DNA from: Patescibacteria group bacterium UBA3533
GTDB taxonomy: Bacteria; Patescibacteriota; Minisyncoccia; Phycocordibacterales; Phycocordibacteraceae
Direction: 5' to 3'
Assembly: GCA_002376865.1 (NCBI GenBank)
Contig: DFOU01000003.1
Span: 62,572-126,571 of the forward strand
DNA: 64,000 nt
A program made the translations under genes and the position numbers. Below, in pieces: positions 56,598 to 62,287 of the stretch. The notes under the pieces are model-generated. The model was not told where the DNA came from. It saw only the letters and a program-made list of their open reading frames with translations, and did no database searches. Numbering within the stretch: position 1 is the stretch's first letter; every line of letters starts with the position of its first letter.

Positions 56598-56674
56598 GGG
56601 CTCGTAGCTCAGTTGGCTAGAGCGCCTCACTTGCACTGAGGAGGTCGGGGGTTCGATTCCTCTCGAGTCCACCA
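56598..56674 (+). tRNA. tRNA-Ala (anticodon TGC), CCA encoded
   Basis: GGGCTCG acceptor with G3:U70, D-arm GCTCAGTTGGCTAGAGC, anticodon loop CTTGCAC, T-arm GGGGGTTCGATTCCTCT, ACCA 3' end. Confidence 0.9.
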
Positions 56675-58179
56675 AAGATGATTTTATCTTTCTGATATAC
56701 CTGATATATCTCAAAGATAAGCCCCAAATTGCCGGTTCCAAGTCCTGTTTTTCTTGAGTAAGTTATTCCCTCAGGAAACACAAGATTTTGGAACCGCTTT
56801 TTGGTATGTAAGGGCTGTAGTTTCCAGTGTGTGCCAAGGGCTTTAGCAAACTCGTCTGCTTGTGCAAGCAGATCTTCTAACTCCTTTTCACTAATCTTTT
56901 CTTTTTTTGCTGCAGTAGAGAGTTCACGAATCTGAGATTCGATTTTATCTTTTCTCTTTTGGAATACTTCGGGAGTGTAGATTCCGTCTTCAAATGATGA
57001 GTATATATTTTCTAGCTTCTTTTCCAGAGCTTGAATTTTAGTTTTGTTTTCGCTAGCAACTGATTCGTATTGTTCAGTTCTTATCTTCCACTCTTTAACA
57101 ACTTCTTCTTTAAATTTTTCTATAAACTCTTTGCTTGGACTAATTGCATTCAGTCTCTCAATAAACTCTTTTTCAAGATCATCTTTCCGTATACTTTTTC
57201 CATAAGAAGGACAGGTCTTTGTGTGGCAGTGGTAGTAATGATAGTAACGACTACGACCTTTTGAAGAGCTTCCTGTAATTGGTGCTCCACAACCTGAACA
57301 TAGGACAGTATCTCCACGAAGAGGGAAGAGTTCACTTTCTCGTATTTGTTTCCATTGTCTCTTTTTACCACTGAGTGTATCTAAAATATCTTGAGCCTCA
57401 TCTTTTGTAAGCATGGGCACATGTAGCCCTTGAACATAATGTTTCTTCCATGGGTTATAAAGTTCACCCGCATAGAATCGTAGTCTAGGTTCTTCAAGTA
57501 TCGCTTGTACATTCTGCGGTGTCATATTGTGTCCCCACAATGTTTCTACGCCAAGTTCTTTCCATCTTCTTTGTAAACTTGCTTGAGTGTGTTCTCCACG
57601 AGCAAACTCACGCAGTCCGGTTTGTAGTATTGAAAACAGTTTTCCATTTGGAACATCAGGGATTGTTTTCTTACTCCCAACTTCACGCTCAGGTGCACGC
57701 TTGTATCCAATAGGTGCTGCCCATGGCCATATGCCACTTTCTATTCTAGATTCCATTCCACCCGAGCATCGTTGCTTTCTTGTCTCATTATCGAATTCAG
57801 CAACAGCAGAAAGCATTCGCTCCATAAACTTTTCAGCAGGACTGTCACCAATTTGCTCTGTTGCGGAAACAAGAGATATTTCATACTCTCGCAGTGTCTT
57901 GCGGACAATAATGTGATCTTCAACATTTCTTGCAAACCTGTCTAGTTTTAATACCAAAAATATGTCTACAGCACTTTTGTTTTCTTTGCAGTACTCAAGC
58001 GCTCTCAAAAACTCAGGTCTGTTTGCTGACTTTGCAGACACGCCTTCCTCTGTAAATATTTCTAGTATTTCAATATCTCGCTCCTCACAATACCTGCGAC
58101 ATTGTATCTCCTGATCTCTAAGAGATGTTCCCTCAACCTGTTCGTCTGAACTTACTCGTGTGTAGATTACTGCTTTCAT
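56617..58179 (-). CDS. Large serine recombinase (resolvase/invertase catalytic domain + recombinase domain + zinc ribbon + coiled coil)
   Basis: 520 aa. Catalytic Ser motif AVIYTRVSSDEQ, DRFARN. C-terminal CSGCGAPI...YYHCHTKTCP zinc ribbon and coiled coil. Last ~19 codons are antisense to tRNA-Ala. Confidence 0.85.
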   Translation of the reverse strand: MKAVIYTRVSSDEQVEGTSLRDQEIQCRRYCEERDIEILEIFTEEGVSAKSANRPEFLRALEYCKENKSAVDIFLVLKLDRFARNVEDHIIVRKTLREYEISLVSATEQIGDSPAEKFMERMLSAVAEFDNETRKQRCSGGMESRIESGIWPWAAPIGYKRAPEREVGSKKTIPDVPNGKLFSILQTGLREFARGEHTQASLQRRWKELGVETLWGHNMTPQNVQAILEEPRLRFYAGELYNPWKKHYVQGLHVPMLTKDEAQDILDTLSGKKRQWKQIRESELFPLRGDTVLCSGCGAPITGSSSKGRSRYYHYYHCHTKTCPSYGKSIRKDDLEKEFIERLNAISPSKEFIEKFKEEVVKEWKIRTEQYESVASENKTKIQALEKKLENIYSSFEDGIYTPEVFQKRKDKIESQIRELSTAAKKEKISEKELEDLLAQADEFAKALGTHWKLQPLHTKKRFQNLVFPEGITYSRKTGLGTGNLGLIFEIYQVYQKDKIIFGGLERNRTPDLLSASEAL

Positions 58180-58252
58180 TATTTCTAGTATACATTTGGA
58201 TTATCCAACTGCATTTTTCTTATTAAAATTGCCTTTCTTATAAAAATGGGTA

Positions 58253-58528
58253 CTAGGTTATAGATTGCTCCCCATACTCTTTATCTGATTCAATTTCAGG
58301 CTCATAAACGTACTCCTCAGACTGATTTGAAGCCTCATAGAGTTGTATAATTAAGGCATTTCGTTCTTTTGGTTCGTAATCATCTTTATCTACTAATTTG
58401 TTAAACCATTCGCTTATAGTTCGCCTTGTAAATTTCTGGTGAACCACTGCCTTAAAAAGGTTTATATAATCACTGGCTCCATTGTCTAACTCTTGCTCTT
58501 TTTTAAATCTTGCTTTAATCGATTTCAT
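58253..58528 (-). CDS. Hypothetical small acidic protein
   Basis: 91-aa ORF. Its start overlaps the RHH gene stop by 14 nt (operon-like coupling). Confidence 0.3.
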   Translation of the reverse strand: MKSIKARFKKEQELDNGASDYINLFKAVVHQKFTRRTISEWFNKLVDKDDYEPKERNALIIQLYEASNQSEEYVYEPEIESDKEYGEQSIT

Positions 58529-60270: not shown

Positions 60271-60408
60271 ATGAAAAAGATAAGTGAAAAAGAGGCAGAA
60301 GAAAATTACGTTCGACATGTAAGAGTATTAAAAAAAGAAAAGGATTGGTCCTGGGTTTGGATTGTTGGTTGGATTCTACTTGTTTTGATTCTTGCACGAG
60401 TGATATAG
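60271..60408 (+). CDS. Candidate 45-aa membrane peptide
   Basis: MKKISEKEAEENYVRHVRVLKKEKDWSWVWIVGWILLVLILARVI. Small ORF just upstream of the OLD-family gene. Weak support. Confidence 0.2.
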   Translation: MKKISEKEAEENYVRHVRVLKKEKDWSWVWIVGWILLVLILARVI

Positions 60409-60475
60409 TTCTGGCTTCAGAAGAAGTAAGACCTGCTCTTTGAATAAACTTTCTTATAGGCGTATACTTTTGTTA

Positions 60476-62287
60476 ATGCGCTTAACATACAGAGAAAGTT
60501 TTTTATCTATAGGATCTTTTGACCCGATTGACCTTCCTAGTTTTTCTATAATTACCGGAGTGAATGGCTCGGGGAAAACTCAGCTGCTTCAAGCAATTTC
60601 TTCAAAAAAAGTATTTGTGGACGGAAGTGGTGAGAAGAGCGTCGTTTACTTTAATTATGAAGACTTTAAGTTAGATAATGAATCAAGGTTTAACTCGAGC
60701 GGCATAATAGATGAAAAGCAGGCAGCTTGGAACTTTTTTCAACAAACCGTTATGCCGGTAATAAAGAACTATGAGGTTCAGCTAAATCCTCATGTTTCTG
60801 ATTTGAATACTTGGTCTTTGAAGTTAAACAAGCCTATGTGGAATCTTTCTGCGTCAGAAATAAATGATGTTGAAATTTCAGGGGCATTAGAGGAATATAA
60901 AAAAAGAATTCGGGAATACTTTCGTAACGAAAAACAAAAAAACAATAAGAATGCTCAGGGTATTTATGTTCTACTAAGAAAGCTGCCATATCCTATTGGT
61001 AATATCGAGCAAGGAGAGTTCTTTGACTTATATAGACCATTTACGTACAAAAATGATTTTCTACCTTCTCAACTTGGTAAGGTTATTTGGGACTACTATG
61101 TGCAACACCAGCAAAATGAACTAAGAGAGTACCAAAATAAAGAAAAAGGCAAAAAGGTTTCCTTCCTCTCAGAAAGTGATTTCAAGAAAAGGTTTGGAGA
61201 GGATCCAGTTGTTGTTATCAATGATATCCTAGAGACCTTTGACAGCTTAGATTACAGACTACGAAGTCCAGAAGGGGAAGATGTTTTTCTTCCATTTCAA
61301 CTTAAACTTATACACAAAGATCTAGCTGATCTCGAAATTGGTTTTGAGGCACTTTCGTCAGGTGAGAGAATCTTAATGTCTCTAGTTGCTTCAATTTATA
61401 AGGCCGCCTCAGACAATCACTTTCCAGAGGTCTTGCTTTTGGACGAGGTTGATGCGTCTCTGCATCCCTCAATGATTAAAAACCTATTAAATGTTATAGA
61501 AGAAGTTTTTATTTCAAAAGGTACCAAGGTCATACTTGTTACTCATTCTCCAACAACAGTCGCTCTTGCACCAGAAGGGTCTCTTTTCTTAATGGAGAAG
61601 AGTGGGCAAAAAAGAGTTTTAAAAGTTTCTAAAAAAGAAGCTCTAAACATTCTTTCAGAAGGCTTCATATCTTTGACTTTCCAGGGAGCTGAAGAAGAGT
61701 TAGATTTGAAGATAGATGAAGCTGATAGGCCGATTGTATTTACCGAAGGCCCCTCAGACAAGAGGATACTTAAGGTCGCTTGGGAGAAACTATATCCAGA
61801 GAAAGAAATGCCATTCGTTTTGCAAAGTGCCTTCGATGCTTATTTCTTAAAAAATACGTTTGCACGAGGGGAAATTTTTAAAAATGATCCTACTAAAAAG
61901 TTTGTGGGTATATTAGATTTCGATGAGGCGGTTAAGCCTTGGAAAGAGCTAAGAGATCTAGGTTCATACGAAGAGGTTGCGGGAGTAGAAAAAGTATTAA
62001 GGCACAAAGGTGGTAATGGGTGGGTGATGTTGCTTCCAGTTCCTGATTTTAGGAGAGGGTATGCAGATATAAGCTATCCTCGTTCGTATCTTTCTATTGA
62101 ACTACTCTTCCCAGATTCTGTCATAGGGAGTTATTGTGAAGATATTGAAAGTGCTGGTGGAGTCTCTTTTAAAAAATTTAAGGATGCTAAAAAGATGAAG
62201 TTTGCAGAAGAGGTAAAAGATCTCGAGGTAGACGATTTTACAGAATTTAAACAGCTATTTGAGTTGATAGAGTCTTGTCTTAATTAG
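60476..62287 (+). CDS. OLD-family ATP-dependent endonuclease (ABC-type ATPase + C-terminal Toprim), class-1/GajA-like; candidate anti-phage defence protein
   Basis: Walker A GVNGSGKTQLL, signature LSSGERILMSL, Walker B/D-loop LLLDEVDASLHP, H-loop THSP. C-terminal Toprim residues IVFTEGPSDKRILK (Glu) and VGILDFDEA (DxD). ORF track start is TTG at 60440; first ATG at 60476. Confidence 0.7.
   Translation: MRLTYRESFLSIGSFDPIDLPSFSIITGVNGSGKTQLLQAISSKKVFVDGSGEKSVVYFNYEDFKLDNESRFNSSGIIDEKQAAWNFFQQTVMPVIKNYEVQLNPHVSDLNTWSLKLNKPMWNLSASEINDVEISGALEEYKKRIREYFRNEKQKNNKNAQGIYVLLRKLPYPIGNIEQGEFFDLYRPFTYKNDFLPSQLGKVIWDYYVQHQQNELREYQNKEKGKKVSFLSESDFKKRFGEDPVVVINDILETFDSLDYRLRSPEGEDVFLPFQLKLIHKDLADLEIGFEALSSGERILMSLVASIYKAASDNHFPEVLLLDEVDASLHPSMIKNLLNVIEEVFISKGTKVILVTHSPTTVALAPEGSLFLMEKSGQKRVLKVSKKEALNILSEGFISLTFQGAEEELDLKIDEADRPIVFTEGPSDKRILKVAWEKLYPEKEMPFVLQSAFDAYFLKNTFARGEIFKNDPTKKFVGILDFDEAVKPWKELRDLGSYEEVAGVEKVLRHKGGNGWVMLLPVPDFRRGYADISYPRSYLSIELLFPDSVIGSYCEDIESAGGVSFKKFKDAKKMKFAEEVKDLEVDDFTEFKQLFELIESCLN

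Follow-up and report, generated by a model that had tools for sequence, protein, structure and literature searches.

The integrase gene and the insertion at tRNA-Ala

We analyzed a 64-kb stretch of contig DFOU01000003.1 from the Patescibacteria group bacterium UBA3533 (hereafter, the window), in which the gene for a large serine recombinase (LSR), designated int, runs into a tRNA-Ala gene at one end of an integrated element. The tRNA-Ala(UGC) gene occupies positions 56598–56674 on the plus strand (ARAGORN; Rfam RF00005, 66.8 bits), and ddl, identified by a Pfam scan, lies just upstream of it at 55546–56469, as the initial annotation of this DNA had placed it. The recombinase has 520 amino acids (aa) and is encoded on the minus strand at 56617–58179. 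Residues 3–149 match the Resolvase domain (PF00239, E = 7.3e-33) and include the motif YTRVSSDEQ; further matches are to Zn_ribbon_recom (PF13408, 9.6e-08) and to the PHROG integrase phrog_95 (3.5e-76). In a 30-sequence alignment, R8, S10, R81, and R84 are invariant, as are four cysteines (C294, C297, C318, and C323), and PF07508 is annotated in some homologues only. The stop codon is located at 56617–56619, and the open reading frame (ORF) overlaps the tRNA-Ala gene by 58 nt, which comprise 18 sense codons, 1 nt, and the stop codon, all antisense to the tRNA. The last residues are GGLERNRTPDLLSASEAL. The initial annotation had described a 520-aa serine recombinase ORF with such an ending, and the overlap bears it out.

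The locus fetched around the window, L001 (L001 coordinate = window coordinate minus 53048), comes from a source contig of 317 kb (Tara Oceans, station 078, mesopelagic) and adds 9.6 kb past the window end. Relatives with the same tRNA were sought by a metagenome scan with the 3′ 42 nt of tRNA-Ala. The scan returned a single other context, the 452-kb contig L010, in which ddl (98% aa identity) and a tRNA that is 100% identical over 79 nt are present and the recombinase is absent. The ddl variant of the L010/L129 type was found on 13 contigs, with a recombinase-free arrangement at every place inspected. In the blastn alignments, L001 3549–3627 matches L010rc 6032–6110 with 100% identity, and L001 13052–13145 resumes at L010rc 6102–6195 with 87% identity over 94 nt. 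The inserted DNA corresponds to L001 about 3627–13059 (9.43 kb); in window coordinates, it starts at 56675 and extends to about 66107, 2.1 kb beyond the end of the window. The part of the integrated element inside the window, defined by blastn against the empty site and by the junction alignment, spans 56675–64000. This alignment of occupied and empty sites, in which the L010/L129 lineage has ddl, the tRNA, and the downstream flank with no recombinase, supports the proposal of the initial annotation that an LSR inserted at the 3′ end of tRNA-Ala and could be recognized by comparison with genomes lacking the insertion. Position 62287, at which that annotation had ended the region, is not the end of the element.

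The two states could also be ordered in the opposite direction, with the occupied site as the ancestral one and a deletion of 9.4 kb in the sister lineage, and only a single other lineage with this exact tRNA was found. Such a deletion would require a base-exact loss at the att core that restored a contiguous tRNA and flank, which amounts to excision. In addition, the ddl-tRNA-Ala site of more distant relatives is occupied by different elements, whose integrases are 50–57% identical to that of the window (57% in L127 and 50% in L128), and the G+C content drops from ~0.44 to ~0.37 across attL. We therefore regard an ancestral occupied state as very improbable. The other elements at this site are located at L127 4550–6160 and 10001–11566 and at L128 3374–4948. 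The L127 element carries a second large serine recombinase (536 aa, with Resolvase and Recombinase domains) and terminates beside a tRNA-Pro.

Six population contigs (L001–L005 and L009) are 100% identical wherever the element is covered. A suspected polymorphism or pseudogenization of int in L004 was rejected, because the sequences are 100% identical and the absent gene call is a calling gap. The contigs L002, L003, and L004 stop at L001 about 13525, ~465 nt to the right of attR, and L009 stops inside the tRNA, at the tRNA/attL junction. Population variants or repeats may be present at these assembly breaks.

When attL and attR are aligned with the attB of L010, the attL core, GTCCACCAAA, falls at 56667–56676. 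It consists of the last 8 nt of the tRNA (the U70-C71-C72-A73-C74-C75-A76 region) followed by AA. The aligned sites are GTCCACCAAAG (attL), GTCCACAAACG (attR), and GTCCACCAACG (attB), and the plus-strand junctions read ..CTCGA GTCCACCAACGTCAAGG.. in attB, ..GTCCACCAAAGATGATT.. in attL, and ..CTTAG GTCCACAAACGTCAAGG.. in attR, which is located at L001 13052–13060. The identity of the three sites is limited to GTCCAC(C/A)AA, as a serine recombinase with a 2-bp crossover would leave it. Based on this alignment, the crossover lies within or beside the last tRNA bases, and tRNA-Ala is intact after integration. The attP junction is predicted to be ..AATAGATTCCAATCAACCATACTTAGGTCCAC[A/C]AAAGATGATTTTATCTTTCTG.. 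and the empty attB ..GGTTCGATTCCTCTCGAGTCCAC[C/A]AACGTCAAGGCTTGGAAATTTGCAC...

The initial annotation had expected attR to be a direct repeat of the tRNA-Ala 3′ segment. This expectation did not hold: the 25-mer at the 3′ end of the tRNA has no second copy with up to 3 mismatches in the window and L001 (17 kb), and only GTCCAC(C/A)AA is repeated. Generic repeat finding gave chance-level pairs only. Another candidate for attR, at L001 15404–15487, was matched with E 0.05 by a hidden Markov model (HMM) of the native integrase tail (described below). It was rejected, because synteny with L010 puts attR at 13052–13060; the match is a copy of a local att-like repeat. Promoter and terminator scans near the tRNA/int junction gave no useful signal.

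The 3′ end of int and its tail

A search of 5.8 billion proteins gave 572 homologues of the integrase at E ≤ 1e-10. Among the best 120 of these 572, which show 43–57% identity, the homology stops exactly at a KSxLVD motif, after which two C-terminal classes are distinguished. The tRNA-antisense class continues with ..VDPTGFEPATSSLQMRRSTN or ..VDLGGIEPPxxQCECxVLPLYYRP, and the native-tail class with xxxxxWNQIIxELxxWQxL.... We fetched 80 family loci, each from a different genome. The hosts are in the majority Patescibacteria, represented by metagenome-assembled genomes, and also include Smithella, Ignavibacteriales, Bdellovibrionales, Omnitrophota, and other groups. In 47 of the 80 loci, the recombinase gene abuts or overlaps a tRNA or transfer-messenger RNA (tmRNA) gene at its 3′ end; the gene has a native tail in 18 loci, is truncated by the contig end in 5, and ends in another way in 10. 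At least five of these ten are tRNA-antisense peptides cut by the contig end, and one of the ten (L033) reads into a tmRNA gene detected by Rfam.

All 47 abutting genes are on the strand opposite to the recombinase. Their specificities are Ala (26), Glu (7), Lys (4), Arg (3), Ile (2), Met (2), Tyr, and Leu, with one tmRNA. The tmRNA 3′-end integrations are located at L045 11511–11857 and L033 11511–11895 (Rfam, 117 and 128 bits, respectively). The LVD codons of the motif, YTG GTG GAC, are the reverse complement of GTCCACCA, the 3′ end of both tRNA-Ala and tmRNA. The alanine identity elements G3:U70 and A73 determine this end, and the tmRNA targets fit the recognition of an alanine-type acceptor end. 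Two loci from different lineages of the candidate phyla radiation, L028 (~6160–6390) and L039 (~11500–11680), share the non-tRNA peptide VVIIPKSSDxFPAExRMRHARSAWWLETKSYAR; Rfam finds no RNA at these two junctions.

The tail HMM was searched against six frames of the 80 loci. All matches with E < 1 are on the recombinase strand and none is on the opposite strand. Orphan tails, detached from any recombinase body, were located 4–11 kb upstream of int in L033, L045, L047, L050, L053, L057, L061, L062, L064, L065, L068, L073, L084, and L127. The cores of the junction pairs are 4–9 nt long and correspond, as reverse complements, to the end of the tRNA (3′ side; for example, TGGTAG, TGGTGC, TTGGTAG, GTGGAC, and TGGTGACCC). 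When int and the orphan were joined at the core, a full-length, in-frame gene with the conserved tail was obtained in nine of nine sister elements, for which the chance expectation is ~5e-5. The orphan tails, the shared cores, and these in-frame joins place attP within int itself, near its 3′ end. Integration thereby swaps the last 20–55 codons of int for tRNA-antisense codons: recombination at the core joins the int body to the antisense strand of the tRNA, and the native tail stays behind, orphaned, at the far element end (attR). Free and integrated elements would consequently encode different forms of the integrase protein, and excision would rebuild the full-length int. An ORF ending in a tRNA, which the initial annotation had regarded as typical of such elements, is a hallmark of this clade rather than of serine integrases generally, because its attP lies inside the gene.

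The copy in the window departs from the family in its reading frame. The minus-strand sequence GAT AAA ATC at 56680–56688, which contains an A4 run, has one base more than the family frame, and an alternative frame of the same DNA (ORF 56517–56741) encodes ..IKSSLVDSRGIEPPTSS.., the family motif KSxLVD. The nearest relative, L127 (57% identical), reads CAA AAA TCA AGT TTG GTG GAC with equal spacing to the core, and the window reads GAT AAA ATC ATC TTT GGT GGA C at the same place. From this comparison, the window gene is 1 base longer; the simplest placement of this base is in the A4 run (56682–56685), which falls 4–5 codons ahead of the core. Because of this 1-nt insertion, the tRNA-derived tail of the window integrase is in a frame other than that of the family (RNRTP vs. 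GIEPP). The orphan tail, FVDLSMVDWNLLLKNIIAIN (VDLSMVDWNLLLKNIIAIN), is located outside the window at L001 13001–13060. Its VD, its WN, and the spacing of five residues are preserved; the E, the L, and the second W, otherwise invariant, are gone, and it terminates with ..IIAIN. Joining int and the orphan tail is out of frame in the window copy only: the predicted post-excision product ends with ..KDKIIFGGPKYG (..IIFGGPKYG), and the orphan tail would not be regained. The window element also lacks the Prim-Pol replicase known from sister elements. Judged from these features, the window copy is probably immobilized or decaying and now forms an island with cargo.

We further compared 27 distinct tails, both intact and orphan. 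The invariant residues are W and N in WNQ, E and L in EL, and the second W, and the Leu and Glu codons vary among the tails; invariant residues with varying codons point to selection on the tail protein. The C-terminus is [AV]A in 17 of 47 native tails (~0.3 expected from composition), compared with 1 of 73 proteins of the tRNA class. We modeled the native-tail homologue P0009 with AlphaFold (42-sequence alignment; mean predicted local distance difference test score, pLDDT, 77). The model has a tail helix at residues 507–527 (pLDDT ~75–78), which is preceded by a disordered linker at residues 484–507 (pLDDT 37–44) that holds KSxLVD. The native tail is thus modeled as a flexible linker and an amphipathic helix, WNQIIxELxxWQxL. 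Because the crossover falls in the flexible linker, a tail swap should leave the fold undisturbed. The model matches the structures of the Bxb1, SPbeta-type, and phiC31 integrases over its full length (E 1e-16 to 1e-13). It also contains long helices at residues 348–395 and 401–424, in keeping with the coiled coil that the initial annotation had assigned along with the catalytic motif and the zinc ribbon.

Approximately one third of the native tails have an ssrA-like end (-AA or -VA), for which reason a state-dependent control of integrase stability or activity appears to be the most likely role of the tail. We tentatively propose, at somewhat less than even odds, that the tail marks the integrase in its free state, that this mark would act on stability or activity, and that the enzyme of the integrated state would be without it. 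Alternatively, the tail exchange may be a neutral by-product, with the native tail kept only as the P′ arm DNA of attP; in this case, int would tolerate any extension at its C-terminus, and there would be no state-dependent regulation. The integrated tails vary with the tRNA used and are evidently tolerated, and a long open frame persists in the window copy though its frame is wrong. Moreover, the first ~8 tail codons would fall inside a normal LSR half-site of 20–25 bp, and the linker ahead of the tail is predicted to be disordered. The conservation nevertheless extends for at least 20 codons (60 bp) beyond the core, which exceeds the usual half-site. The invariance of W, N, E, L, and W despite varying Leu and Glu codons and the enrichment of [AV]A ends also speak against a purely DNA-level role, as does the retention of open frames and invariant residues in the orphan tails. 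We therefore consider a neutral exchange rather unlikely.

The best explanation for the locus as a whole, to which we assign a probability of about 80%, is a 9.43-kb element inserted by its LSR, with attP inside int and an int tail exchanged upon integration. Several observations weigh against this explanation. The 18 native-tail copies are in chromosomal contigs, some in mid-contig and some followed by further tail copies, and the family may therefore have a second lifestyle outside the attP × attB model. Terminal overlaps were found in none of the 26 complete short contigs, and neither a circular form nor an excision junction was seen. The alignment is compatible with either of two crossover positions, namely, the AA after the CCA end or a site inside GTCCAC, the latter if the attB of the strain differed from that of L010 by 1 base. 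Only ~36% of the native tails have an ssrA-like end, and the window orphan tail has none. Finally, three att-like repeats (described below) are internal to the insertion, which may be a composite and not a single element.

Att-like repeats, LOOT RNA, and cargo

The att-like repeat is 45–55 nt long and occurs in 7 copies in L001, all oriented as the orphan tail (minus strand, ..TTGGATAAATCCAAACTTTGTGGAGCAGTTAGGAGCTGGTTGGAATCT..). The first copy, ..TTTGTGGAGCAGTTAGGAGCTGGTTGGAATC.., is located on the minus strand at 62952–63008 (repeat unit 62956–62985). It is the single copy in the 64-kb window, and the repeat is therefore not genome-wide. The seven copies are at L001 9908, 12111, 12669, 15427, 16260, 16527, and 16879 (window-equivalent 62956 to 69956). 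Three of them are inside the insertion, and four are beyond attR in DNA common to the empty-site relative, which has its own copies at L010rc 10724, 11218, and 11598. The repeat and the true attR share TTTGTGGA-16 nt-TTGGAATCT, with likeness at the LV(D/E) and WN positions, and the repeat is conserved at the DNA level, not at the protein level. The repeats may be accretion scars or cassette boundaries, and the first copy may accordingly mark an internal cassette boundary.

Elsewhere in the family, L020 and L021 (11400–16500) contain a native-tail integrase followed by four modules of 1.1–1.45 kb. Every module contains, in this order, a variable ORF, a conserved 62–73-aa ORF (MLTLEQ..LSDEEVLEIRDQLYSLAEIIFEQW), and a GTGGTGGTC core followed by a tail. 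These arrays are laid out like an integron and suggest accretion or a cassette-like use of the site. Members of the small ORF family of these modules are also found directly upstream of int in L053, L061, and L084. In L010, the 94-bp flank that follows the tRNA is present twice within L010rc 6102–7340, around a 280-aa ORF without a family match, and the second flank copy follows a decayed tail-like stretch; the tRNA-Ala site in the L010 lineage seems to have been used before.

These observations raise the possibility of an integron-like cassette platform, in which an int module (56675 to ~62955) would be followed by cassettes gained and lost singly downstream of tRNA-Ala. The seven repeats in the same orientation, confined in the window to this region, would fit such a platform, as would the presence of some of them in the DNA shared with the empty-site relative, the modules of L020/L021, and the duplicated flank of L010. 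LSRs, however, normally recombine attP with attB only. The repeats show DNA-level conservation and just ~64% identity with the true attR, the same cassette was not seen at two positions, and tandem accretion followed by decay would give an identical picture. On balance, we consider the platform rather unlikely, and we retain the LSR-inserted element with attP inside int as the preferred reading.

A 2-kb stretch at L001 13000–15000 (window-equivalent 66050–68050) has a G+C content of 0.50 in a genome of 0.40. It is annotated as a 533-aa protein without a family match and is 80% identical to L010 at the DNA level, with several frames on both strands highly conserved. A large non-coding RNA was suspected from this all-frame conservation, and Rfam gave no match in the region; the region could encode a protein or a large RNA.

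A LOOT RNA (RF03000) was identified on the plus strand at 59976–60088, with an Rfam score of 65.6 bits (gathering threshold, 46.4), covering model positions 1–121. It is located in a divergent intergenic region between the operon directed toward int, which begins with a 226-aa gene, and the cargo operon that contains an ATPase gene. A 5′ signature of LOOT was found in 10 of the 80 family loci, all ten of which were confirmed by Rfam (55–88 bits), and an eleventh was found in L033. A covariance model was then constructed from 12 LOOT sequences and searched over 1.3 Mb. It detected 25 copies, in the window and 24 loci, 13 of which are outside the training set. The loci are L017, L026, L031, L033, L038, L043, L045, L047, L052, L059, L060, L065, L066, L067, L068, L069, L073, L081, L082, L083, L088, L090, L127, and L128. 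Each locus has a single LOOT copy, which invariably lies upstream of int; in 22 of the 24 loci, it is on the other strand than int. In 16 of the 25 cases, an ORF on the strand of the RNA is found 40–140 nt downstream of it. The model found no copy in the empty-site contig and none elsewhere in the window.

LOOT RNA is a hallmark of these recombinase elements. Conceivable roles are those of a leader for the cargo operon, of a control RNA, and of an RNA associated with an origin. The Rfam entry types it as a stand-alone small RNA, whereas here it is a fixed part of LSR elements. In a search of full-text literature, with most subscription journals outside its coverage, we found no genomic context for LOOT RNA. 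The long non-coding stretches that the initial annotation had noticed in the downstream DNA thus hold the LOOT RNA and are not featureless.

Two ORFs lie between int and the LOOT RNA. A 91-aa ORF (58253–58528, minus strand) is located directly upstream of int. It is 41% identical (E 8e-17) to an ORF at the same place upstream of int in L127 and is the sole cargo ORF in common with a relative. Because it is kept in L127, it is a candidate integrase partner, either a regulator or a directionality factor, and for the latter it is the only candidate. A 226-aa ORF (59044–59724, minus strand) is the first gene of the operon directed toward int, and sister elements have ORFs of 200–300 aa at the same position beside LOOT. 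Neither ORF has a usable match in Pfam (also at E ≤ 10), PHROGs, or PADLOC. The ribbon-helix-helix and winged helix-turn-helix labels that had been attached to the 91-aa and 226-aa products, respectively, find no support there.

On the other side of LOOT, a gene call for a 45-aa ORF without a family match (60271–60408, plus strand) precedes the gene of a 615-aa ABC-type ATPase of the OLD/AriA/PtuA/AbiLi kind (60440–62287, plus strand; Pfam and PADLOC). The Pfam matches are AAA_21 (3.1e-17) and AAA_15 (2.4e-15). In PADLOC, ATPase-Toprim_I-B is the best match (7.4e-22), followed by AriA (3.2e-19) and then AbiLi and PtuA. The profile matches end near residues 400–457, and no Toprim profile matches. 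By eye only, Toprim-like motifs can be recognized in the C-terminal part (~440–520), namely, E-G (FTEGPSD) and DxD (LDFDE). The OLD nuclease of the initial annotation is thus upheld in its ABC-type ATPase part, whereas its Toprim nuclease domain has no profile match. Judged from its sequence relationships, the protein is a probable anti-phage defense cargo. PARIS AriA, Septu PtuA, AbiL, and class 1 OLD share the N-terminal ABC-type ATPase with it (AAA_15, AAA_21, ATPase-Toprim_I-B, AriA). Unlike in those defense systems, the match is limited to the ATPase part, and no partner gene of a known system was recognized.

The remaining cargo comprises three ORFs. A 201-aa predicted membrane protein (62321–62926, minus strand; from the ORF list) has faint PycTM matches only, and a 190-aa alpha/beta serine hydrolase (63049–63621, plus strand) matches Pfam Ser_hydrolase (2e-11). 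A 194-aa VanY/M15-like ORF (63618–64202, plus strand; the window ends at 64000, and the ORF is complete at L001 10570–11154) has sub-threshold Pfam matches to VanY (9.2e-05, 22.7 bits; cut-off 25) and Peptidase_M15 (0.0015, 18.8 bits; cut-off 27). The downstream ORF that had been called a VanX-like dipeptidase therefore exists, with VanY and Peptidase_M15 scores below the cut-offs only. This gene is inside the insertion and is thus cargo, and the empty-site relative has no such gene beside ddl, so that the idea of an insertion that had split a D-Ala metabolism neighborhood can be set aside. Apart from the element, a 1-kb block at window 42001–43000 has a G+C content of 0.52, compared with ~0.42 in its surroundings.

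A serine integrase with a phrog_95 match, together with an M15/VanY-like peptidase as a possible lysin, might indicate a prophage or its remnant. The insertion is only 9.4 kb long, and none of its nine cargo proteins has a structural PHROG match (capsid, tail, terminase, or portal). In IMG/VR, the integrase has distant relatives only, with at most 32% identity. Sister elements of 4–11 kb encode Prim-Pol replicases in several cases and, in one, Prim-Pol with AAA_25 and PriCT_1; Prim-Pol with AAA_25 or PriCT replicases are typical of small integrative plasmid-like elements. We give the prophage origin hardly any credence.

A broader view of the family would be that of a widespread, self-modifying LSR clade, mainly of Patescibacteria, in which the often ssrA-like tail helix, lost upon integration and regained upon excision, serves as a state memory for stability or directionality, the 3′ end of int docks int-less cassettes, and LOOT acts as a control or replication RNA. 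The docking is hinted at by the arrays of L020/L021 and by the repeats downstream of tRNA-Ala. We regard this combined picture as possible but on the doubtful side.

Comparison with known systems

An LSR with attP in its own gene and an exchanged C-terminus is apparently undescribed in the full-text literature, with the same limits of coverage as stated above. The window copy alone is an ordinary, probably inactive island with a defense-type ATPase, and its value lies in exposing the family. The family defines a common type of small mobile element in Patescibacteria, whose mobile DNA is poorly known, and through it LOOT RNA is for the first time placed in a genomic context and assigned to hosts. 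In genome engineering, serine integrases are among the leading tools, and how their direction is controlled is a matter of active structural research. Engineered C-terminal fusions of an integrase with its recombination directionality factor change the direction, according to one paper (PMC5737554). The natural tail swap provides a ready experiment on the effect of a C-terminal appendage on stability and direction. The family also supplies many orthogonal integrases, the attB sites of which are predictable because they are tRNA and tmRNA ends.

The window enzyme is a large serine integrase in all features that sequence and model could address. The integrases of Bxb1, phiC31, SPbeta, and Listeria A118/LI have the same domain order (catalytic domain, recombinase domain, and zinc ribbon with a coiled-coil insert) as the integrases described here. 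The few-base identity at the junctions is consistent with the 2-bp staggered crossover expected of large serine integrases. Unlike the Bxb1/phiC31-type integrases, the present ones have attP in their own ORF, so that integration alters the protein, and they target the 3′ ends of tRNA and tmRNA genes instead of protein-coding genes. They further differ in the additional conserved C-terminal helix on a flexible linker, in their hosts, which are mainly Patescibacteria, and in residing in elements of 4–11 kb that are not phages.

Integration into tRNA genes by serine recombinases has been called rare by one paper (PMC3218068, PMC4471427). Examples are the actinomycete integrative and conjugative elements (AICEs) of Mycobacterium, which use tRNA-Leu (PMC3218068 / PMC4471427), and the filamentous phage phiRSM, which uses tRNA-Ser. 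The AICEs are small and integrative and often have a Prim-Pol replicase, as in the sister elements of the window. The enzyme of phiRSM is small and resolvase-like, and its attP is between genes. Neither an attP inside int nor a tail exchange is described in the sources on AICEs and phiRSM, and the phyla differ from those of the present family.

The closest known logic is that of integration-dependent immunity in the mycobacteriophages BPs and Brujita (Clusters G, I, N, and P), in which attP is inside the repressor ORF and integration removes ~33 C-terminal residues (PMC4557955). The state-dependent control proposed above would be analogous to it. The long viral form of the BPs-type repressor has an ssrA-like tag and is degraded, and the integrase of these phages also has a C-terminal proteolysis signal (PMC4557955). 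BPs and Brujita split their repressor gene and use a tyrosine recombinase as integrase, whereas here the gene of the serine integrase itself is split. Another difference from BPs is that the lost tail is replaced by tRNA-antisense codons, and proteolysis in the present family is suggested only by the -AA and -VA ends. The archaeal tyrosine integrases of the SSV1 type also have attP within int and target a tRNA, and their gene is partitioned into two large parts and inactivated upon integration. Unlike in the SSV1 type, only the last 20–55 codons are exchanged here, leaving the catalytic and DNA-binding domains intact.

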